Source: a virus
Lineage: Duplodnaviria > Heunggongvirae > Uroviricota > Caudoviricetes
IMG/VR virus record: IMGVR_UViG_2851976983_000001
Location: 36,474-100,473 of that record
Reading direction: 5' to 3' (one strand)
DNA: 64,000 nt
Both the position numbers and the translations under genes were made by a program. Every line of letters starts with the position of its first letter. Position 1 is the first letter of the stretch. The notes below the pieces were generated by a model. It was not told the DNA's origin. It saw nothing but the letters and a program-made list of their open reading frames with translations, and ran no database searches. Below, piece after piece: positions 6,289 to 61,919 of this stretch.

Positions 6289-8397
6289 TCACTTTAAAAT
6301 GATACGAGATAGTTCAGTAACTACAGATGAACCAAGACTATCAACGCTCGTTACCAGGGCATGTTTTGAGTAAAATCTCTCCGGTGCGTCAGTCATGATG
6401 CCAATTGCCATCAAATCAATGTCAGTCTGCGTTTCAATTTGCTTCGCAACCGAACGCAAATGAGCGTCAAAACCTCTCCCAACAGCCCACGGCGCGCCAT
6501 CACTCAGAACAAGCATGATCTTCCTGTCCTCCATGCGACCGGAAAATAACGATGCAAGGCTGGCTATGCTTTCACCATCCACGTTATTAAGAAGTGGGAA
6601 TGTGTAGCCTACGCACCCCATACGTGAGCGAACTTCGCGAGAATTTACCTTTTCATTCCAATTTTTGATGATAGGTAGCATTAAAGATTCAAAGCGAGAG
6701 AACTCATACTTGACAGCCTTAAGTTCTCCTGCCGCCATATGACTACCAAATGTAGTGAAGCCGGTGATAATGTTGGGAACATTTATTCGATCAAGGGCAT
6801 CGGCGATGGTATATGCACTTGCAAGAGCCAATTGTATCGTTATACCACTCATTGAACCTGATAAATCAATCACTTGTTGAACACAGGCGTTAACGGCTTT
6901 AGATTCTTCTTTTTTACGAAACACGCGATCATCATTCATTGCTAATCTGTAGATACTAGAACCATGAATGCGCCCCCGACGCTGGCCCGGTATAAACTGA
7001 ACTCTGTTTCTGCTTGCTATTGCTCGCTCCAGGTCTTTTGCCAGCGTCGACGAAACACCTGACGAAAGATGCTTTTCAATATATTTGTCGAAGAGCTGGT
7101 TGCCTTCAGGAACGATGCGATAGCGGCTGATTGGATATCCTCCTAAATCAATATCGGAGAATGTTTTAATAAGCCGTTTGATATGGGCTTCTGCCTGATC
7201 AATCGAGCCGATGAAGTCGTATGAGCGATTGTATGGCCTGTATTCGCTTTTCGAGCTTTCTGTTAACTCGCTTTTAATCGTTTCGGATAGAGCATCTTCT
7301 GTCATGCCTCCGACTTCATCTTCTATGCTATCCAGCTCCTCTAAAGCCTCTTCCAGACTCATTTTTGACGGAGTTGGGATATCTGAAGAGCCGTCTTCTG
7401 TCGTTTTTCTTTTTTCGTGGTCAGCGGTTAATGATTCTGACGCCGCGTTATCAGAAGCATCAGAATCTGATACCTCTTTATCATTTTCTGTATCATCGAA
7501 TATTGTTTCTGATGATTCAGAATTATCTGAATCATCACTGTCATTATTATCATGTTTGTACTTACTGTGTGACTCTGGTTTGATAGATTTGTGATTATCT
7601 AGCGATGAGGGTGTCTCATGATCTTCGTCGTCTTCATTGTTTTCTCCAGAGGCATCCGTCTGGTCAGCGTCTGAAGGATCGGAAGTTTTTCCCGGAGCTG
7701 ACTCCTTACCTTTGCTTTCACTTTCAGTGTCTTTGAGGATCTTAGCTATGGTCGCAGCCACCTTTACACAATCCTCGGTGCAAGACATGTTACGCACGGC
7801 CACATCGATACCATGTTCTTTTAATAATGAAATTGGTTTCTCAATGACAGGCCAGTATTCATCCATGAAATCTACGAACGGTGCTTGGCCATCCCAGGCT
7901 CTTACAACCGGACAGAGAAAGAAGTTTAGAAAAAGCGCGCGCTGATCTTTGCCACAATAAGCAATAGCCTCTGAAGCCTTTGGTTTAAAGACTTTTTCGA
8001 TTATAAGGCGTTGAGTTGCCATCAGATTACGTCTTGTTCCGTTAAAGACCTGCCCCATTTTTCGCTCGATGAACACGTCTTCTAAGGCATTCCATAGCGA
8101 CCAGGAAGGAACGCGTCCTTTTTCTCTCATTTTGTTGGACACACGAATATCGGTAAACAAAATGTGAGCAACCTCATGATCGAGAAATCCGCGCACAGCA
8201 TTCATCAATGCCGGTGTTGCGTTATCCGGGATTGATGGGATGTTTACGAGAATTGGCTCTCCATCATCGTTATAGCGTACATAAGCGTCGTCTCCTCGTT
8301 CTGCAACAGGGATGTTTTTACCTGAAAGGAGAGCGACTACTCGTTTTACACTGTCACGGAAGTCCTGAACCTCTTTGATGGAACGTTTTTTAGACAT
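6289..8397 (-). CDS. CobT-like von Willebrand factor A domain protein with acidic low-complexity linker
   Basis: C-terminal vWA MIDAS motif VIDLSGSMSG (DxSxS); central D/E/S-rich region; paired with the upstream AAA+ ATPase. Confidence 0.6.
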   Translation of the reverse strand: MSKKRSIKEVQDFRDSVKRVVALLSGKNIPVAERGDDAYVRYNDDGEPILVNIPSIPDNATPALMNAVRGFLDHEVAHILFTDIRVSNKMREKGRVPSWSLWNALEDVFIERKMGQVFNGTRRNLMATQRLIIEKVFKPKASEAIAYCGKDQRALFLNFFLCPVVRAWDGQAPFVDFMDEYWPVIEKPISLLKEHGIDVAVRNMSCTEDCVKVAATIAKILKDTESESKGKESAPGKTSDPSDADQTDASGENNEDDEDHETPSSLDNHKSIKPESHSKYKHDNNDSDDSDNSESSETIFDDTENDKEVSDSDASDNAASESLTADHEKRKTTEDGSSDIPTPSKMSLEEALEELDSIEDEVGGMTEDALSETIKSELTESSKSEYRPYNRSYDFIGSIDQAEAHIKRLIKTFSDIDLGGYPISRYRIVPEGNQLFDKYIEKHLSSGVSSTLAKDLERAIASRNRVQFIPGQRRGRIHGSSIYRLAMNDDRVFRKKEESKAVNACVQQVIDLSGSMSGITIQLALASAYTIADALDRINVPNIITGFTTFGSHMAAGELKAVKYEFSRFESLMLPIIKNWNEKVNSREVRSRMGCVGYTFPLLNNVDGESIASLASLFSGRMEDRKIMLVLSDGAPWAVGRGFDAHLRSVAKQIETQTDIDLMAIGIMTDAPERFYSKHALVTSVDSLGSSVVTELSRIILK

Positions 8398-19850: not shown

Positions 19851-20903
19851 ATGACAACGTTGTCCAAAAACGTGATGCAACACAGGAAGGTATTGAAAGA
19901 AACTGGTTTGGCGTTTGCCAAATCTATACCGCTTGTTGGACCTCATATTGAGGCAGCGGAAAAAATGTTCACGTTGTTCTCAGAGATAAATGCGACGACT
20001 TGTCGTGATCGATTCAACCGTTACATTATGGGCATTGGTGAAATTTGCGACGATGAGGTCGATATCTCAAGAGAACACTTTTCGGCGTTAGTCAAAAAGC
20101 TCGTGCTTGATGATGAAGACAAGAAAACAGAATACTACATTCGCTTGACGGTAAGCCTAGCCCGCAGCAGCCTTAACGACGATGAAAAACTATTTTTTAT
20201 CCACATACTGAGTGGGTTAACCTGCTTTGATATTGAATATGCGCGCAAACTTTACATCACAACAAGCTCGCCAATAAAAGGCTATAAATCAACTGTATTA
20301 GCCCAAGTTAGCCTCACATCACAAAAAAGTGGAATGGCTCTGAGATCGCTAAATAAGCTCATAACCTCGGGTCTCGTCTACGAAGACAGGGCTGGCGAGA
20401 TCCAAGCGAACCCCATGTTCAAATTAACAGATGAACTTGAGCGTCTTTTAGGATTTATTTTTCACAAGGATGATTTGGAGCCTGAAGCTTTATCTATTGA
20501 GCCAAAGGAAGAATACGACGTCATTATCATTGAAAGCAGCGAAATCTATAGTGGGGCATATCCAAACAGCATTTATCGTAGTTTGAAAGCCGCCGGCATT
20601 AAGGTTTGCATAGAAAAAAATGAAGACTGCATTACAACCAAGCTGGCAAAGTACTTCATCTCAGTCAAAACAGGGAGCGGACTCAATGGTGAAGGTGAGT
20701 GGATTGAATTTGGGCAAATTTACGTCCTCAAACGCCTAGATTCAAGCAGTAAACGTTTCTATGAAAATGAGCACAGTGAGACAGTCAGTATCAGCAATTT
20801 TAAACCTAAGGATAACGACCAAACATATGATGCAAGTTTGCTAAATATAGCACTAAATAATATCGCTGCGTTTGTCCTGAACCGTCTGTCTCCCACAACT
20901 TAA
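19851..20903 (+). CDS. hypothetical protein; orphan plus-strand AT-rich gene
   Basis: 350-aa ORF opposite to the surrounding minus-strand replication genes; no motif I recognise. Confidence 0.6.
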   Translation: MTTLSKNVMQHRKVLKETGLAFAKSIPLVGPHIEAAEKMFTLFSEINATTCRDRFNRYIMGIGEICDDEVDISREHFSALVKKLVLDDEDKKTEYYIRLTVSLARSSLNDDEKLFFIHILSGLTCFDIEYARKLYITTSSPIKGYKSTVLAQVSLTSQKSGMALRSLNKLITSGLVYEDRAGEIQANPMFKLTDELERLLGFIFHKDDLEPEALSIEPKEEYDVIIIESSEIYSGAYPNSIYRSLKAAGIKVCIEKNEDCITTKLAKYFISVKTGSGLNGEGEWIEFGQIYVLKRLDSSSKRFYENEHSETVSISNFKPKDNDQTYDASLLNIALNNIAAFVLNRLSPTT

Positions 20904-20904
20904 A

Positions 20905-22086
20905 CTACACGAGTGACTCGATACCGAGCACTTTGCATTTTAACTCCAGCTGTTTGGAGTAAGGCTTGGCACGATAATAGGCTTTGAGGATCTGCTCTGG
21001 CGTCGCGTCGCCGGGGTCGAGACCTTCTTCGCCCAGACAGGCCACTTTGACATTTAGTCCGATGCTGGTGAGGCGTTTGGCCGCCGACATGGTGTTGCGG
21101 ATCGCTTGCTTCTCGCTATCCCACATCATGATGACGTTGCGTAATCCACGCGCCTTGAGCGTCAGGAACGCGCCCAACTGATCTTCAGCGTCCTCATTCA
21201 TATTTCCGGACAAGTGCATCCCGAACGTGCCAATTGGCTCTACATAATCCCTCAGCGTCTTTTCGTCGAAGATGGCTCGCTTCACGCCCATTACGTCAAA
21301 TGCCCCTTCACACACAACGACTGTTTGTTTCCCGACTGCGTTGTGGCCGTTGTAGAGAAACTTACCCGACGCCGGCAGCTGCATAGGGAAGAGATAACGG
21401 CGTTCTGCTGCACCGGTAATGTCACGCCCCTGGAAGGTCTTCATCACGCCATCCAGATCGTAAACCGGTATCAGGATGCGCATATCAAACACCTGCCCTT
21501 TGACCTGGTCTGTGTACGGATCGACGTATGCGTGCTTGCCTTCGACGCAGTAACGCAGATCAAAGTATTTGGCCAGATCCGGGGAGATATGGCGCTCCAC
21601 CAGATAATCAGGAAGACGACCGTCAATGGGGAGTTCGTAATGTCGAGGGAGAGCTACTGGCCCTTCGAGTTCAACCTTGCTGGCCAGCACGACCTCTTCC
21701 TTCTTCGGCGCCCATCCTTGTGAGATCAGCGCGTTCTGCACATATTCCTCGAACTGTCGTCGTGATTTACCGCTGTAGTGCTTGAGGAAGACCAGCTTAT
21801 TGAACTGAATCTCTTCGGGATGATCACCAGCAAAGCATTTGCCGACGCCACTGGTCAGATTGAAATATACCTTCCAGTTGGAGCTGCCACATACCGGACA
21901 CTCCTTGATATTCACTTCACGACCGCGAGCACTCACGCCTCCACGTCGATAAACGATACCTTCAGTGTCCAACCATTGTTCAAAATCTAATTCGGTAATT
22001 AGCTCTTTCAGCTCGCTCACGATAATTCCACTTTTAATAGGCAATATTGTGACCAACCTAAATGTTGATATAACATAAAGGCTCAT
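20905..22086 (-). CDS. DNA primase (zinc-ribbon + TOPRIM)
   Basis: CPVCGSS...CFAGDH zinc-binding motif and TOPRIM VVVCEGAFD; start uncertain (ATG at 22086 or GTG near 22021; the ORF-track start 22158 lies beyond a hairpin). Confidence 0.7.
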   Translation of the reverse strand: MSLYVISTFRLVTILPIKSGIIVSELKELITELDFEQWLDTEGIVYRRGGVSARGREVNIKECPVCGSSNWKVYFNLTSGVGKCFAGDHPEEIQFNKLVFLKHYSGKSRRQFEEYVQNALISQGWAPKKEEVVLASKVELEGPVALPRHYELPIDGRLPDYLVERHISPDLAKYFDLRYCVEGKHAYVDPYTDQVKGQVFDMRILIPVYDLDGVMKTFQGRDITGAAERRYLFPMQLPASGKFLYNGHNAVGKQTVVVCEGAFDVMGVKRAIFDEKTLRDYVEPIGTFGMHLSGNMNEDAEDQLGAFLTLKARGLRNVIMMWDSEKQAIRNTMSAAKRLTSIGLNVKVACLGEEGLDPGDATPEQILKAYYRAKPYSKQLELKCKVLGIESLV

Positions 22087-23551: not shown

Positions 23552-24292
23552 TTAATTAGATAGGGGATCAATAAACCGCCGTGCTTCTTCCAGTTCTTCT
23601 GGAAAGTGGGCGGAAATAAGGCGCTCTGGAACGATTTCCATTAGCCAGATAGCGGAGAAAATTGCGCGTATGCGCTTGCTGCGGGGGATGGTGCGTAAAC
23701 GCTCCAGAATCCACTCAAAATAGCTTTCCTGGATCGGGTTGAACTGCATGTCTCCCATATGCTTAAAGCTAACCAGAGAGTCATCCAGACGGGTTGTTGC
23801 GCGTCTGGCTAATTTCTCTTCAAATATCTCAATCAGTTCTGGCTGCCATAAATGCTGTGGGCGCGGCAGCTTGTCCCACAGCCGTCGTGCAGCTGCGGAA
23901 AGAACGGTGGAGATAAAGTAGTCGTATGAGCAGCAATAGCGGTCAGCAAACTGGCGTGCTTTCCATAGAGACGTTTTATTGGCAGTCGACAACTCCTGAT
24001 AAGGCAGGCGTTTTAACCCGGTGGTGAACGGAGCTGTTTCAAAGTGTTCTCGACCGTGCGTCAGCATGATATTTGAGTACTGACGTTTGTATGCCTCCGT
24101 AAAAAGACAGGTGGCCATGAGAGGATGCATGTCGCGGTAATCAAACCACTTCGTCTCGAAGAGTTCAGCCTCGTCTTTACAGCGCGACAAACCAATGTTT
24201 TCAGCGACCCACTTGTCCATAACAGCGGTATTCCACTCTGTCATGAAGTCGTACTGGTCGTTGTCGATGGTATCGAAAAAGATTTGGCTCAT
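23552..24292 (-). CDS. hypothetical protein (possible helicase loader by position)
   Basis: 246-aa ORF immediately upstream of the helicase; GATAAGTAAGTAA motif ~20 nt upstream of the ATG. Confidence 0.45.
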   Translation of the reverse strand: MSQIFFDTIDNDQYDFMTEWNTAVMDKWVAENIGLSRCKDEAELFETKWFDYRDMHPLMATCLFTEAYKRQYSNIMLTHGREHFETAPFTTGLKRLPYQELSTANKTSLWKARQFADRYCCSYDYFISTVLSAAARRLWDKLPRPQHLWQPELIEIFEEKLARRATTRLDDSLVSFKHMGDMQFNPIQESYFEWILERLRTIPRSKRIRAIFSAIWLMEIVPERLISAHFPEELEEARRFIDPLSN

Positions 24293-24408
24293 GTGGCTCG
24301 CCTGGTAGGTAGTTACTTACTTATCACAATGAGCGAATGATAGCGACTGGTGGCAGTTTTTGGAAGTGGAAACGGAAGGGAGTTGTTCTGGTGGTGTCTT
24401 TTAAAAGA

Positions 24409-24463
24409 CCTGCTTCCGTATATATTTAATAAGTTACTTATTATTTATATATACAGAAGCAGG
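24409..24463. repeat. 55-bp palindromic element, copy A
   Basis: CCTGCTTCCGTATATATTTAATAAGTTACTTATTATTTATATATACAGAAGCAGG; near-identical copy at 61865..61919. Confidence 0.8.
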
Positions 24464-24574
24464 CATAACTTGTCGTCTTAGACGCCCAGAAGCTCTACAC
24501 TTTGAGCCTGTTAAATTGATTAAAAACTTATGTGTAAAATAGAACGCATTAGTCAGTAGCTAAGAGATGCAATA

Positions 24575-25342
24575 ATGGACGATTTATCGGTATACGCGAG
24601 ATCATTGGATAAGGCTAAATACTATGTTTACTGTCTCTATGATACAGAAGACAAGATGAAAAGACCGTTTTACATAGGAAAAGGCAAATCGACTCGTTGT
24701 CTCGATCACATCAAGTATCCCGATGACTCTCCCAAATCCATGCGGATCAAAGAACTTTTGGCTAATAAAAAATTAGGCATAGATATACTTCGTCATGGTA
24801 TGGATGAAACCACAGCCAAACTTGTTGAGGCGACATGCATCGACCTTATGGGGGTCGGAGAGCTTACGAATAAGGTTCGAGGAAGTGGTTCCATGATGGG
24901 CAGAATATCACTGGACGCCTACCATCACTTAGTGCTGCAAGAGGAAACTGAAATTGCTCCTGAGCACGCCGGTCTTGCCTTCCTGCTAAACAGCACCTAC
25001 AAGTCAGGAATGTCCGCTCTGGCATTATATGAAGCTACGCGTGGCGTATGGGCAAAGGTTCCAAGAGACGAGAATCTCAAATATGCCTACGCTACATATG
25101 GTGGGCTGATAATGGAAGTTTATCAGATTGAATGCTGGGTCAAAGCCGGTTCTCAGCAGTACTTTACAAGGGATATAGCTCTTGGCCCCGACACAAAACG
25201 TTATGAATTTGTTGGCAGAATAGCCGATGAGCATATTAGAAAACTGTATGTAGGCAAATTAATCAAGAAGCCACCAAGCTACGGTAGCCCTTTTGTGAAG
25301 GTTGGGGTGGTTAGGACTGAACATAGTGTTAGCGCGGCATAA
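24575..25342 (+). CDS. GIY-YIG nuclease-domain protein (homing-endonuclease-like)
   Basis: N-terminal YYVYCLYD...PFYIGKGKSTRCLDH resembles the GIY-(x10-13)-YIG...R core; plus strand, own terminator. Confidence 0.45.
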   Translation: MDDLSVYARSLDKAKYYVYCLYDTEDKMKRPFYIGKGKSTRCLDHIKYPDDSPKSMRIKELLANKKLGIDILRHGMDETTAKLVEATCIDLMGVGELTNKVRGSGSMMGRISLDAYHHLVLQEETEIAPEHAGLAFLLNSTYKSGMSALALYEATRGVWAKVPRDENLKYAYATYGGLIMEVYQIECWVKAGSQQYFTRDIALGPDTKRYEFVGRIADEHIRKLYVGKLIKKPPSYGSPFVKVGVVRTEHSVSAA

Positions 25343-25359
25343 AGCTGACACAGTAGTTA

Positions 25360-25396
25360 TGCATTGGCGCAACGTACGCGCCAATGCATGATTTTT
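25360..25396 (+). terminator. rho-independent terminator of the GIY-YIG gene
   Basis: TGCATTGGCGC-AACGTAC-GCGCCAATGCA followed by TGATTTTT. Confidence 0.6.
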
Positions 25397-25754
25397 AACC
25401 TTTTTTCATCAACTCTCGTTTGATTTCATCGGTACGCATCGTGACATCGGCAGCTGTGATCGCCTCGTTAAGTTTCACGATGTCCTCGATTTCCTGCGGT
25501 GACTTCTCTGCCAGATGGAAAATGGCTGCGCGAATCACGTCTGAACGGGTGAACTTCTCGAAGCGAGGGATGAACTTCATCATCTCCAGCAGTTCGAAGT
25601 ATTCGTCCTCCAGTGACATTGTGCGGCTTTTAATTTTCTCTTTGCCACGAGTCGGGCGTCCCTGTGGTCTGACTGGTTGGCGCAAAGGAGTTGTGTTCTT
25701 AGCCGGTGCATCAGGCTCTTTGCGCTTTGCTAGGTCACCCATTTTCATGGACAT
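25395..25754 (-). CDS. small partition/centromere-binding protein candidate (ParG/ParB-like)
   Basis: 119 aa, basic N-terminus; translationally coupled to the ParA gene (ATGA overlap). Confidence 0.4.
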   Translation of the reverse strand: MSMKMGDLAKRKEPDAPAKNTTPLRQPVRPQGRPTRGKEKIKSRTMSLEDEYFELLEMMKFIPRFEKFTRSDVIRAAIFHLAEKSPQEIEDIVKLNEAITAADVTMRTDEIKRELMKKG

Positions 25755-26422: not shown

Positions 26423-26568
26423 TGGAGAGTTCCCTTTGCGTATATAATTATCGTCTGAAACAACTTGTTTTCTTATATGTGATATAGCCTAAATGCCTAC
26501 GGCTGTGGTGTAAAGGTTAAATGGTAGGTGCTGCCTTAGAATTTTTAGGCGAGAATCAATGGCTGTTA

Positions 26569-26594
26569 ACAAAAAAGGCGACCAAAGTCGCCTG
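26569..26594 (-). terminator. rho-independent terminator after the 26599..27351 gene
   Basis: On the minus strand: GGCGAC-TTTG-GTCGCC followed by TTTTTT. Confidence 0.6.
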
Positions 26595-26598
26595 ATTT

Positions 26599-27351
26599 TT
26601 AATCTTTTAGGTATAAACCTACTGGAGTTCTTGTTTTGCGGGAGATGATAAGTACGATAAATTTCTGAACGTTAACTTGCACTTTGTTTGGGAGCCAAGA
26701 GCTTAACTCTGCATCAAGCAACAATCCTCTGTTCCACGGCAAAAATCCGGTTTCTTTCCCCATCCCGTACTCGCCTAACACATCCTCGAACGTTTCTGTT
26801 TTGGCATTGTATATACGCACATCGCCGGTTCGCATGAGAGGCCCTGCCCAGATCTTAGCACCAGGAATGGTTTGTGTATCGTCGCAGACTAAATGCTCAT
26901 ACCAATGAAGAAGAAAGAGATAGGTACGGTGACACAATCCTCGCTGACGACGCTCTCTGACAGTTTCGACACCAGCTACCTGGTAACATTCGATCTCATT
27001 ACCGTCTTCAACAAAACTATATTCACGCAGAGCTATCCTACCAGCGATCGTATTTTTGTTTTCGTCCAGAAGCCCGGACTGGAGCACCTCTTTGATAATC
27101 TCTTCTTCAGGGGCATCTTCATCCGCTCGATCTAAGATGAATTCGCTCAGGTCGCCTTGGTCGCGCGCACCTACACGTTCCATAGAGACATACAGGCAAA
27201 TGTCATCTTCTGGTTCAATGATTTCAATTTCTGAGATTTTATAGAGGGAGGCTTCATTGATAAGAAAGCCAAAACGAACAACACGAGTCTCCCCTTTATG
27301 AGGAAACTCGCTTAGATCTTTTGAATATGCGCTATCTAGTGTAGGAGCCAT
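26599..27351 (-). CDS. hypothetical protein
   Basis: 250-aa ORF overlapping the upstream 127-aa gene. Confidence 0.5.
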   Translation of the reverse strand: MAPTLDSAYSKDLSEFPHKGETRVVRFGFLINEASLYKISEIEIIEPEDDICLYVSMERVGARDQGDLSEFILDRADEDAPEEEIIKEVLQSGLLDENKNTIAGRIALREYSFVEDGNEIECYQVAGVETVRERRQRGLCHRTYLFLLHWYEHLVCDDTQTIPGAKIWAGPLMRTGDVRIYNAKTETFEDVLGEYGMGKETGFLPWNRGLLLDAELSSWLPNKVQVNVQKFIVLIISRKTRTPVGLYLKD

Positions 27352-27719
27352 TTTGTAGCAGAATCATCAGCCTTAACCGTGCTGACAATGCTACCATGAT
27401 TGCGTAAGAAGCGGCGAATAGAATGTTCAATAACCTCCGAAAAAGCCTCGATAAAACGAGACAGCTCAGGGTACTGTTTAGCTGGCTTGACTACAAAACG
27501 AACACGACCATTCAGGTAAATTGCTTCAGCTAATGGCTTCACGCTTGCACCAGCGCGCTCAACATCGTCTTTGAAGGTAACGATGAAGCGTGAGTCTTCC
27601 GGTTCAATAGCGTCATTATTGAGCTTACGTACTTCAAGCTTGTGCTGATTCAGCACATGAGTCTCGATAATACTCGTGCAATCGCGAATAGTTTGTATAG
27701 AACGTTTCTCGTTCAGCAT
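27336..27719 (-). CDS. hypothetical protein
   Basis: 127-aa ORF; first gene of a two-gene unit downstream of the lysis cassette. Confidence 0.5.
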   Translation of the reverse strand: MLNEKRSIQTIRDCTSIIETHVLNQHKLEVRKLNNDAIEPEDSRFIVTFKDDVERAGASVKPLAEAIYLNGRVRFVVKPAKQYPELSRFIEAFSEVIEHSIRRFLRNHGSIVSTVKADDSATKWLLH

Positions 27720-27943
27720 GTGTCCACCTTAGCCGTTAACACAAGTGTCATTGCGGCACCCCTCTCGGGGTTGAAGGCTACGAGGATGCGTAGCCTGTAT
27801 GTGCCCACTTACGTGGATGCCTAATAAATCTACATCAAATTACTAAATGATTCAACATGAGCTTGAGTGAACAGGCGTGTATATGAGTGAAGATGCCATC
27901 TTTAGGATAAAAGGTAAACTGAGACCACTCATCAATCATCGCC

Positions 27944-28171
27944 TCAGTTCAGGTGCCCCCACTCACACAGCCTTTCACCTATCGTATTGTGGATAAGCAA
28001 CTGTCGCTCCGTTTCCTCAGTCATAAAATCCTCTCTACTCACATAGATAGGATTTGCAGCATCGCAGAATAGCACGCCTGGAGCCTGCGTCTTAATCACG
28101 CACCCATTTATCAAGCAGCTCGCGATGAACACCAGAGGCATCTTTTTGCCGCACTTCATTAACCGTTTCAT
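27944..28171 (-). CDS. outer-membrane spanin candidate (Rz1-like lipoprotein)
   Basis: MKRLMKCGKKMPLVFIASCLINGC with lipobox, encoded in an alternative frame overlapping the 3' part of the Rz-like gene; start uncertain. Confidence 0.5.
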   Translation of the reverse strand: MKRLMKCGKKMPLVFIASCLINGCVIKTQAPGVLFCDAANPIYVSREDFMTEETERQLLIHNTIGERLCEWGHLN

Positions 28172-36155: not shown

Positions 36156-39100
36156 ATTAAGTATGTACCTACTTATTTTTACCTATATAAATATTTTTTT
36201 CTACATTACAGAAGGCCAATTCTTACTCGTAGGACGTTGTTATCGTCATAAACGTCAATCCGCTGACCATTTATGACCAGTCGCCCATTACCCCCGCTAT
36301 TACCGTTGATCTCAAGCGTTCCATTTTTGCCGAACCGCCATCCAGATCTACCGCTAACAAAATTGGTAGATTGCAGATCGCCTACTTTTGCATTGGTGAT
36401 TGTGCCATCCTTGATATACGCACCATTCATATAGGCGATACTGTTTTCGATAACAAATGGCGTGGTGATCTTCCCGTTAACAGAGTTGACCAAACCAAAC
36501 CTGTCAGCCTGCACCAAAAACTGAGAAAGGCCAGTGGTGTCGATACCAAGCGCAATACCAGCAACATACTTCTGCCCTCCGCTCGTTGAAGTCTCCATTT
36601 TCAACGTCCACGCGGTTGACACTTTTTTGTTGGTATCAGCAATAGCTGTTGCCTGCTGTTGAATTGTCGCGGTATTTCCATCCACCTCTGCTTTCAGAGT
36701 GTCGATTCGCCCACTTAGAGCATTATCTGCCTGCGTTCTCGCTGTCGTTTCAGTTGTGACCGCCGCAGAAATGTTGGCTGCTGTTTGAGACTCTAAGTTT
36801 GTGATTTGAGTCGCCAATGCCGCATCTTGCTCTGTACGCGTTTTCGTTTCGGTTGCTACAGCCGCTTTAATATCCTCTTTGTATTGAGAGGTCAGCTTGG
36901 TGATCTGAGACGACAACGCCGAGTCAGCATCAGTTCGAGCCTGCGTTTCAACTGCAACGGCCGCACTAATATCTTTCGCTGTCTGTGCTTTTAAACTTGA
37001 AACCTCTTTTGTTAAAGCGGTATCACCATCAGCACGAGCCGTTGTTTCTCTGGCAAGAGATGCCTCGAGATCATTAGCTTTTGCTGTAAGAGACGAAATC
37101 TGAGTGGACAATGCACTATCGGCATCAGTCCTTGCCTTTGTCTCTACAGCAACCGCTGCGGCAATATCAGTTCCGGTTTGTGCTCGCAGGCTGTTAATTT
37201 CTCGTGAGAGCGCCTGGTCAGCACTTGCTCTGGTCTCCTGCTCCTGAGTGATGGCAGCGGATATATCACCGTCAACCTTTGACTGAAGCTGGTTTATTTG
37301 TTTGGCTAACGCAGAGTCCCCGCTTGCTCGGGCCTCCTGCTCACTACGTATTGCAGCAGAAATATCATCATCAACCTTTGCCTGAAGTTGGGTGATCTGG
37401 CTTGCCAGAGCCGAATCTTCCGTTGCTCGGGCTTCTTGCTCTTCCTTAATAGCTGCGACGATATCGTTGCTTACTTTCGACTCAAGCTGAGTGATCTGTG
37501 TCGTCAGAGCTTCATCGGCAGATGTGCGAGCCTCCTGCTCTGTACTAATCGCCGCGCTGATATCTCCTTCAAACTTAGATTGCAGCTGAGTGACACGCTT
37601 TGCCAACGCTTCATCGCCATCGGCACGAGCGGTGGACTCTTCCAGAATACTGGCCTTAATGTCTTCGCCAATTTCTACGCGAATTTCCTCAACCTTCGTG
37701 GCCATTGCAGACATATCATCAGCAAAGGTTTTCTGTGTTGTTGCGATCTTCGCGTTATTGACCATCTGCTTGTGCTGGTCTTCATCTTGACGAAGAGCCA
37801 GGTCAATATTTGTTTTGGCTAACGCCTCAATGTTCGTAGTCAGTTCTGCACTGGCACGATCGACCTCTGCAACCGTCTTTTTCATTTCTTCAACGGCAGC
37901 GGAGCTTTCCTCTACCGTTGACTGCAACACTTCCAGTTGTTTAGCGTTTGCAGCATCGCCTTCAACACGAGCCTCGCTTTCCTTAGCAATAAGAGCCGCC
38001 GCTTCATCTCTTGCAGCCTTTATTGCCTCGACTGTATTAGCGAGAGCTTTATCGTGTTCAGATACGGTGTTTTCGATTTCAACAATTGCAGCATCAGTAG
38101 CATCAATTTTTTCAAACGCTTCATTGACCTTGTCGATCGTTGCCGAAACCTCACCTTTAAGCTCGGTTTGTGCGTTCTCCAAAGCATCGCTACGCTCGTT
38201 GAATTTTATTTCAAAACCCGCGAGGTTATCGCTGAACTGCTTATCTAATTCAGCTATATCTTCCTTAACGTCGTTTACCGACCCCTCCAAAGATTCGACG
38301 CTCTGGTTGATATGCTCATTTAACTCGTCAACTGCTTCTTGAGAGGCTTTGCTGTTGATGTCCTCAAGCAGAGCCTGACCAAGCTCGGAAGATGTAATTT
38401 TGCCAGCCAGGAACGACAGTACATCGCGAGTTGTCGCCTCTGTACCCAAGTTTGAGTTCGGAGGGCTTAACATACCTCGCTTGTTCGATGCTCGAACCCA
38501 GTAATACCACGTTTCGCTATCCCCAAGACCAGCATGTGTAAAGGTGGTGCTTGCAGACTCTGCGATCAGTTTCGCCGTATCCAGATTGTTGGTCTGGGAT
38601 GCGTAAACATTAATGTGATCAAGGTCTACCGAATCTGGATTAACCCAATTCAGTATCACATTACGATAGTCTCCAACGGCCGTTAATGACGTTGGGGCAT
38701 CCGGCGGTGTCATTGTGCCCAACACCTGATAAACGGTACTGATAATCTCTGTTTTTTTACCGTTGAATGAAACCGCATACAGTTGGAAGTCGTAGTGTCC
38801 ATTCTCCGCGACATTAACGATTTCGTATTGCTCTTCGGTTACACGCGCCGATTGCCAGTTCGATACATTGTTTTCATCAGAACGTCGCCAACTGATCCAA
38901 TACTCTGGAGATTTTCCTTCCCATGTTGCAGTCAGTTTTACTGACAGGTTGCCCGGGCTTGAGAGATAAGTCCCTTCAGTGATTTGCAGATTAGATGGCT
39001 TGGAGTAAGTTGGGTCCAATACCGTCGTATTCTGCGGGATCAGCGTTGCGCCATTGTCGATTGCCTCATATTTAGACGGATTGTTCTCAACAGCGGTGAT

Positions 39101-61864: not shown

Positions 61865-61919
61865 CCTGCTTCCGTATATATTTAATAAGTTACTTATTAT
61901 TTATATATACAGATGCAGG
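61865..61919. repeat. 55-bp palindromic element, copy B
   Basis: CCTGCTTCCGTATATATTTAATAAGTTACTTATTATTTATATATACAGATGCAGG; one mismatch relative to copy A. Confidence 0.8.

Follow-up and report, generated by a model that had tools for sequence, protein, structure and literature searches.

PD-T4-3 was found by functional selection in E. coli (Vassallo 2022, PMC9519451; the name PD-T4-3 is absent from the article body), and PD-T4-3/CMoRE restricts phages T2, T4 and T6 by direct defence (Liu 2026, PMC12923530). CMoRE binds and degrades only DNA that contains 5-hydroxymethylcytosine (5hmC) or glucosyl-5hmC (5ghmC), which it cuts at CN11/N9G between two modified cytosines, and its function needs a tetramer (a dimer of dimers) with V92 and L96 at the interface (PMC12923530). 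A 15-residue acidic loop serves CMoRE as a safety catch, and neutralisation of four acidic residues leads to cutting of ordinary DNA and to toxicity; according to the same authors, the acidic autoinhibitory loop, located between helices 2 and 3, is present in "most" family members, and the members characterised so far have no strict sequence specificity (PMC12923530). A homologue from Capnocytophaga, 48% identical, is modification-dependent and cuts Mu as well as T4 DNA (PMC12366544). PD-T4-3 is active against Tevenvirinae in its native host NILS69, in a paper that gives no gene location, and a survey of phage-plasmids recorded PD-T4-3, PD-T7-5, PrrC or restriction-modification (RM) systems in SSU5-group elements of E. 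coli and Shigella (10.1101/2025.09.12.675607). Here, we analysed a GIY-YIG nuclease gene in a 64,000-nucleotide stretch of viral DNA (positions 36,474 to 100,473 of IMG/VR record IMGVR_UViG_2851976983_000001; hereafter, the window) and assigned its product to this family.

By sequence comparison, the element is an SSU5-like phage-plasmid of E. coli: two E. coli plasmids (CP025897.1 and NZ_CP025870.1) are 100% identical to the window, the region under study is 98.8-98.9% identical to Escherichia phages CMS-2020a and PhiR41_1, and Salmonella phage SSU5 is also a relative. The region contains a single credible gene, 24575..25342 on the plus strand, which codes for a protein of 255 amino acids (aa). 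An in-frame stop lies five codons 5' of the ATG, which is the first start after this stop, and the starts of homologues fall on the same alignment column.

Profile, sequence and fold comparisons place the protein among the PD-T4-3/CMoRE single-protein type IV modification-dependent restriction endonucleases, as a divergent member with ~27-29% identity, and we consider it quite probable that it functions as a modification-dependent defence nuclease of this family. The PADLOC profile of PD-T4-3 (PDLC04031) matched residues 11-231 on profile positions 11-238 of 256 (E 1.3e-23, 81.9 bits), and a phmmer comparison with the CMoRE crystal structures 9U7U and 9U75 aligned residues 12-230 (E 2e-15). 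An AlphaFold model built from an alignment of 36 homologues (mean predicted local distance difference test score, pLDDT, 82; predicted template-modelling score, pTM, 0.78) shows two domains joined by a linker that is disordered at residues 95-106; the linker of CMoRE is likewise disordered (PMC12923530). When this model was compared with the Protein Data Bank using Foldseek, the top four matches were the four CMoRE entries, all full-length (E ~1e-11 to 2e-12, probability 1.0, 27-29% identity), and the next one was the GIY-YIG domain of UvrC. What is new here is the assignment of the protein to a known defence family, within a divergent clade of it; nothing about it is conceptually new.

The GIY-YIG core that the first-pass annotation, made from the sequence alone, had read in the N-terminus (KYYVYCLYD...RPFYIGKGKSTRCLDH) was recovered by these CMoRE matches and by Pfam. 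The sole Pfam model matching the protein was PF22945, LEM-3-like GIY-YIG (residues 32-104, 30.1 bits with a cut-off of 27), and it is because of this match that the NCBI product name is LEM-3-like. LEM-3 of C. elegans and human ANKLE1 are eukaryotic nucleases that act on chromatin bridges; they contain ankyrin and LEM domains and are functionally unrelated to the protein described here. A search of NCBIfam with the protein gave no match, and the matching PHROG family, phrog_5356, has no known function. Residues Y17, Y19, Y33, G35, R41, H45, E85 and N99 align with motif and catalytic residues of CMoRE; R41 and E85 are the conserved catalytic Arg and Glu to which the first-pass annotation had tied its reading. 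Within this set, Y17-V-Y19 and Y33-I-G35 correspond to Y17, Y19 and Y31 of CMoRE, i.e., to the three-tyrosine GIYxY...YIG motif. The motif and catalytic residues are invariant in the 36-sequence alignment, and 104 of 110 full-length relatives at a greater distance also have them.

The C-terminal part had been described in the first-pass annotation as uncharacterised and as a possible DNA-binding domain. It is not an uncharacterised module of the I-TevI or Seg type: the last ~135 residues share homology with the domain by which CMoRE/PD-T4-3 senses modification, with the alignment spanning the whole sensing domain, and no NUMOD, helix-turn-helix or zinc-finger model matched at E ≤ 1 in Pfam. 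The authors of the CMoRE study found no structural homologue of the sensing domain (Liu 2026, PMC12923530). In our comparisons, the predicted model of the C-terminal domain resembled, with low Z-scores, the PUA-like modified-base readers VcaM4I, McrB-N and THYN1-5mC. A PUA-like (ASCH/EVE/YTH) fold, which would fit the role of a base reader, is thus only suggested. The likeness to the readers of other type IV enzymes is at the level of fold, with 3-13% identity, and the enzymes that carry PUA-like, SRA or EVE readers (VcaM4I, MspJI, PvuRts1I/AbaSI, McrBC and GmrSD) have nucleases of the HNH, PD-(D/E)XK or other types, not GIY-YIG.

CMoRE/PD-T4-3 itself (E. coli ECOR68, APEC O1 and O157:H7; 9U7U and 9U75) and the gene studied here are both single genes on mobile elements that code for proteins of ~250-260 residues. 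Both proteins have a GIY-YIG N-terminus with an extra tyrosine (YxY...YIG), the catalytic Arg, Glu and Asn, a flexible linker and homologous sensing domains. A single-component system is also indicated by the one credible open reading frame (ORF) in 24464-25394 and by the chromosomal homologues, which are solitary too. With 3112 clusters at E ≤ 1e-3 in a representative library, the family is a large one. Homologues with 54-73% identity to the protein come from Providencia, Shewanella and another gammaproteobacterium, where they are solitary chromosomal genes in variable spots; one of them is adjacent to the mutS region, and another has RelA/SpoT-like genes and insertion sequence elements as neighbours.

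Several observations weigh against the family assignment or its functional consequences. The protein shares only 27-29% identity with the characterised enzymes, the global template-modelling score to 9U75 is low (0.38, which reflects a different predicted arrangement of the two domains), and our literature searches turned up no experiment on this clade. Residue Y127 of CMoRE, whose main-chain oxygen contacts the 5-hydroxymethyl group, aligns to L121 in the variable linker; since the contact is made by the main chain, specificity cannot be read from sequence. No σ70 consensus promoter passed our scan of 24200-25500. Finally, the 15-residue acidic autoinhibitory loop of CMoRE (DDDE) is absent.

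The last difference was followed through the relatives. The segment from H45 to L61 is 15 residues long in the protein (IKYPDDSPKSMRIKE), 8 residues shorter than the 23-residue segment with DDDE or DDDD in 9U7U and 9U75, and in the model it forms a short loop, YPDDS, of ~5 residues (48-52), whose lone DD pair is not conserved. The same 15-residue length was found in 70 of 110 relatives and an acidic run of at least four in none of the 110, figures drawn from the 150 best relatives of the subfamily's own profile and hence biased towards the clade of the query. Even so, this sample shows that a sizeable "short-loop" branch exists. At the positions of the tetramer-interface residues of CMoRE, V92 corresponds to V84, and L96 to C88, a Cys that is invariant in the clade alignment. 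Thus, the protein differs from CMoRE in its low identity, in its shorter loop segment, in the lack of a conserved acidic run and in its location on an SSU5-like phage-plasmid.

By analogy with CMoRE, the specific substrate would be 5hmC or 5ghmC, a proposal that we hold only slightly more firmly than its negation. The departures just described could also mean that a modification-dependent nuclease of the same family has another target, such as the carbamoylmethyl-adenine of Mu, arabinosyl-hydroxymethylcytosine or modified thymidines, or a looser margin between self and non-self. The loop typical of the clade, without the acidic tetrad, agrees with such a difference, and so do the distance from the 5hmC-specific enzymes and the PD-T4-3 homologue that cuts both T4 and Mu DNA (PMC12366544). 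However, nothing positively indicates another substrate, the acidic loop is a feature of "most" and not all family members according to the CMoRE paper, and the sensing domain aligns with that of CMoRE over its full length. We therefore regard a different target or control as unlikely.

We next turn to the surroundings of the PD-T4-3/CMoRE-like gene. The first-pass annotation had outlined a nuclease cassette at 24409-25396 and had suggested that relatives lacking it would reveal the insertion point. Five relatives with both flanks and without the gene were found: phage Cyrano, CMS-2020a from strain SCU-175, plasmids pLAU-OXA1 and pF404-2, and a plasmid of strain elppa6. Homology to the five ends at 24463-24473 on the left and restarts at 25391-25397 on the right. 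Because these breakpoints are common to all five, the exchangeable unit is 24464..25394/6; the gene does form a self-contained unit, with borders narrower than first drawn. The features of the locus are as follows.

24464..25394, plus strand: exchangeable cassette (leader, one gene and terminator), delimited by the breakpoints relative to five relatives with other cargo (loci L001 and L003-L006).
24464..24574, plus strand: AT-rich cassette leader (36% GC), read from the sequence as containing a ribosome-binding site (AAGAGA) 7 nt 5' of the ATG and a presumed promoter.
24575..24856, plus strand: N-terminal part of the gene; N99 is just past its end, in the linker.
24857..24910, plus strand: flexible interdomain linker (residues 95-112), with pLDDT <50 at residues 95-106.
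24911..25309, plus strand: C-terminal beta-rich domain (residues 113-245), homologous to the modification-sensing domain of CMoRE, with a possible PUA-like (ASCH/EVE/YTH) fold.
25355..25399, plus strand: intrinsic-terminator-like hairpin (16-bp stem, 7-nt loop) and T5 run, based on folding, arms and position in the variable segment.
24409..24463, no strand: 55-bp imperfect AT-rich palindrome with GC-rich ends, a backbone element that forms the left border of the slot, based on the inverted repeat, folding and conservation.

As the first-pass annotation had stated, the gene is transcribed against its neighbours, both of which are on the minus strand (23552..24292 and 25395..25754). Its claim that the cassette has a terminator of its own also agrees with our results: the hairpin at ~25355-25393, with a 16-bp stem that includes perfect 12-bp arms at 25359-25370 and 25378-25389, is followed by GATTTTT and folds better than any of 200 shuffled sequences (dG -26.9 kcal/mol, z -5.6). 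Since the hairpin and T-run are inside the variable segment, they belong to the cassette. A scan of 24200-25500 with promoter and terminator consensus patterns returned nothing, so the terminator is called from folding; the hairpin was probably missed by the simple scan because the fully extended stem leaves only four Ts in the tail window. A weak promoter-like sequence, TTAAAT-N18-TAAAAT, was seen by eye at 24511-24540, and we infer that the cassette has its own promoter.

The GC content of the cassette is 43.7%, compared with ~48-49% in the flanks. The cassette of plasmid pLR-62-2_1 and that of the window are 98.1% identical, while the genes that flank it there reach only 80-90%; therefore, the cassette has moved between diverged backbones. 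Among PLSDB plasmids with the same intergenic backbone, 132 of 249 carry the cassette and 117 do not. Of 5426 complete E. coli genomes, 104 have it, invariably on a plasmid and not on the chromosome, with a median of one locus per carrier and a maximum of two. An addiction or RM-like module was rejected, there being no methylase or partner gene in the cassette. A transposon was rejected as well: terminal repeats and a transposase are absent, and the breakpoints coincide with the ends of a gene and of the palindrome.

The five relatives hold other cargo at exactly the same slot, and we conclude that 24464..25394 is a hotspot of cargo exchange, where the cargo that can be identified is mostly related to defence. 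The alternative cargo measures ~0.8-2.0 kb in all five, differs in orientation among them and has PADLOC defence or candidate-defence matches in three. These include a DUF2971 protein (candidate system PDC-S31, 3e-41), a KAP-family P-loop NTPase (PDC-S49, 3e-22) and PD-T7-5 (1e-139) together with a DUF2971 protein; in SSU5, the slot holds three genes, a DUF2971 gene and two of unknown function. Two further cargo proteins have no Pfam or PADLOC match: one of 352 aa (phrog_22329; L004, 1609-2667, plus strand) and one of 225 aa (phrog_1353; L005, 1694-2371, plus strand). As the slot also hosts PD-T4-3, PD-T7-5, PDC-S31 and PDC-S49, both are candidates for unrecognised defence genes.

The content of the slot bears on the reading that the first-pass annotation had preferred, that of a free-standing GIY-YIG homing endonuclease, which would cleave cassette-free phage-plasmids at a specific site, with the cassette then copied in by repair. 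The gene is indeed self-contained and is present or absent among closely related elements, and conservation is far higher in the cassette than in the flanks, where identity increases on approach to it, as co-conversion would give. Yet ordinary exchange at a hotspot accounts equally well for this conservation, and an empty target site was found in none of the five relatives examined, nor in SSU5, unrelated cargo being present at identical breakpoints. Each element has a single copy, and the chromosomes of the 104 carrier E. coli genomes have none. The wider family consists mostly of solitary chromosomal genes of bacteria, and its characterised members read no defined sequence (PMC12923530). Unlike I-TevI and SegA-G of T4, the protein has the extra tyrosine motif and no NUMOD, helix-turn-helix or zinc-finger tail, and a reader of modified bases, the CMoRE sensing domain, takes the place of a reader of sequence. 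We thus consider homing very unlikely. The evidence supports the fallback offered in the first-pass annotation, a nuclease with a role in defence.

The label "putative homing nuclease", which could be taken as a point in favour of homing, is attached to homologues in lytic jumbo phages, others of which are called "G-I-Y Y-I-G endonuclease". These homologues (for example, those of Klebsiella phage N1M2, Pseudomonas phage OBP and Serratia phage Moabite, the last at 6439-7125 of NC_048792) are 25-36% identical to the protein; the matches mostly cover 71-88% of it, those of OBP and Pantoea phage Survivor only 39-52%. Jumbo-phage homologues with the full two-domain architecture are more likely misnamed members of the PD-T4-3/CMoRE family, and they may be modification-dependent nucleases used in competition between phages and not for homing.

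The gene adjoins, and is divergent from, replication genes, which might point to a nuclease for the phage-plasmid's own life cycle (degradation of host DNA as by EndoII of T4, replication, recombination or repair) or for anti-defence. However, the gene is dispensable, since about half of the related plasmids (the 117 of 249 mentioned above) have other cargo in its place, and the architecture is that of a nuclease joined to a modified-base reader. The resemblance of the protein to EndoII goes no further than the common catalytic fold, and nothing ties it to known anti-defence families. A role of this kind appears highly improbable, and a defence nuclease of the PD-T4-3 family remains the preferred reading.

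The slot is located between a replication module (primase, DnaB-like helicase and a 246-aa gene) and a partition module (ParA and its 119-aa partner). The left neighbour, 23552..24292 on the minus strand, codes for the 246-aa protein and heads an operon with the DnaB-like helicase and primase, as annotated in relatives. The right neighbour, 25395..25754 on the minus strand, codes for the 119-aa protein and is followed by the gene of a 222-aa ParA. Neither neighbour protein has a Pfam or PADLOC match. In phage Cyrano, the 119-aa gene, directly upstream of parA, is labelled "RelE/ParE putative toxin". This is the position where a small centromere-binding partner of ParA (ParG-like) is expected; given this position and the lack of a Pfam hit, the toxin label looks doubtful.

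Other variable segments were observed in the window. A second slot, 26530-27956, lies between parA and the lysis genes. In the window, it contains minus-strand genes for 250-aa and 127-aa proteins without Pfam or PADLOC matches; in Cyrano and several plasmids, a DUF1778 antitoxin and a GNAT (KacT-like) toxin; in PhiR41_1 and SSU5, other DNA that cannot be aligned with the window. Cyrano and PhiR41_1 are homologous to the window only from 20930 onwards, a point within the 3' end of the primase gene. On the left of it, there is a plus-strand ORF of 350 aa (19851..20903), opposed to its neighbours and without a Pfam or PADLOC match; 19851-20929 could be a third slot for cargo.

The left border of the hotspot is formed by the 55-bp palindrome, which the first-pass annotation had noticed upstream of the gene and had taken into its interval of 24409-25396. 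The palindrome is real (17-nt outer arms that are 94% complementary; fold z -7.8), but it is a backbone element, since relatives without the gene have it too; conservation was seen in Cyrano, PhiR41_1, SSU5 and plasmids with other cargo. A search of Rfam gave only a chance match to a microRNA hairpin (E 0.59). The only other copy in the window, 61865-61919, has one mismatch, lies 37 kb away between unrelated flanks and is placed between a gene for an 88-aa protein and the small and large terminase genes. Both ends of the linear genome record fall within this copy in SSU5 as well as in Cyrano, with the break falling between ...CTTATTAA and ATATATACGGAAGCAGG..., and for this reason it is probably the packaging (cos) site; symmetric nicks in the palindrome would leave an overhang of ~19-21 nt. 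Literature searches on the SSU5 cos site or cohesive ends and on phage PhiR41_1 returned nothing useful. The copy at the hotspot border might act as a terminator or insulator for minus-strand cargo, an idea based on the UCUUUU tail 3' of the palindrome on the minus strand, or it might be a break-prone site that favours exchange of cargo.

The slot resembles the defence hotspots of P2 and P4 and the defence cargo of phage-plasmids in being a fixed site between conserved modules, with sharp breakpoints and swappable cargo of a few, mostly defence, genes. It differs from the P2/P4 hotspots in its location on an SSU5-like phage-plasmid between replication and partition genes and in its left border, a palindrome duplicated at the presumed packaging site. 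A more far-reaching proposal combines these features with those of the protein. The SSU5-type enzyme may stand for a large branch of the PD-T4-3/CMoRE superfamily, a "short-loop" clade that works without the acidic safety lid. Such a clade would therefore tell self from non-self by other means, or its target would be a modification different from 5hmC/5ghmC, bound by a C-terminal reader of PUA-like (ASCH/EVE/YTH) type that had so far gone unrecognised, while the sharp left border of the hotspot would be due to the duplicated cos-like palindrome acting as an insulator or as a break- or recombination-prone site. Taken as a whole, this proposal is tentative and, in our opinion, more doubtful than probable.

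If the protein acts as CMoRE does, the following course of events can be expected. In a lysogen, the promoter of the cassette would drive expression of the nuclease. Its PUA-like domain at the C-terminus would bind hypermodified bases of incoming phage DNA, most probably the 5-hydroxymethyl- or glucosyl-hydroxymethyl-cytosine of T-even phages, and the N-terminal GIY-YIG domain (Y17/Y19/Y33, R41, E85 and N99, with a divalent metal) would cut nearby. Unmodified DNA of the host and of the phage-plasmid would not be bound and would be spared, and the host, and hence the resident phage-plasmid, would be protected without abortive infection. Expression, the modification recognised, the oligomeric state and the defence phenotype are here extrapolated from CMoRE.

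DefenseFinder-based surveys already record PD-T4-3 on SSU5-group elements. The present analysis moves a "hypothetical / LEM-3-like GIY-YIG" gene to a defined class, that of type IV restriction enzymes acting against hypermodified phage DNA, and gives the exact position of a cargo slot in a family of phage-plasmids that is clinically common. About 2% of the complete E. coli genomes have the gene, in every case on an SSU5-like phage-plasmid; lysogens of these elements would be expected to resist T-even phages, a point that matters for the host range of phages used in therapy. For the family itself, the absence of the acidic lid provides a natural test of the autoinhibition model of CMoRE.

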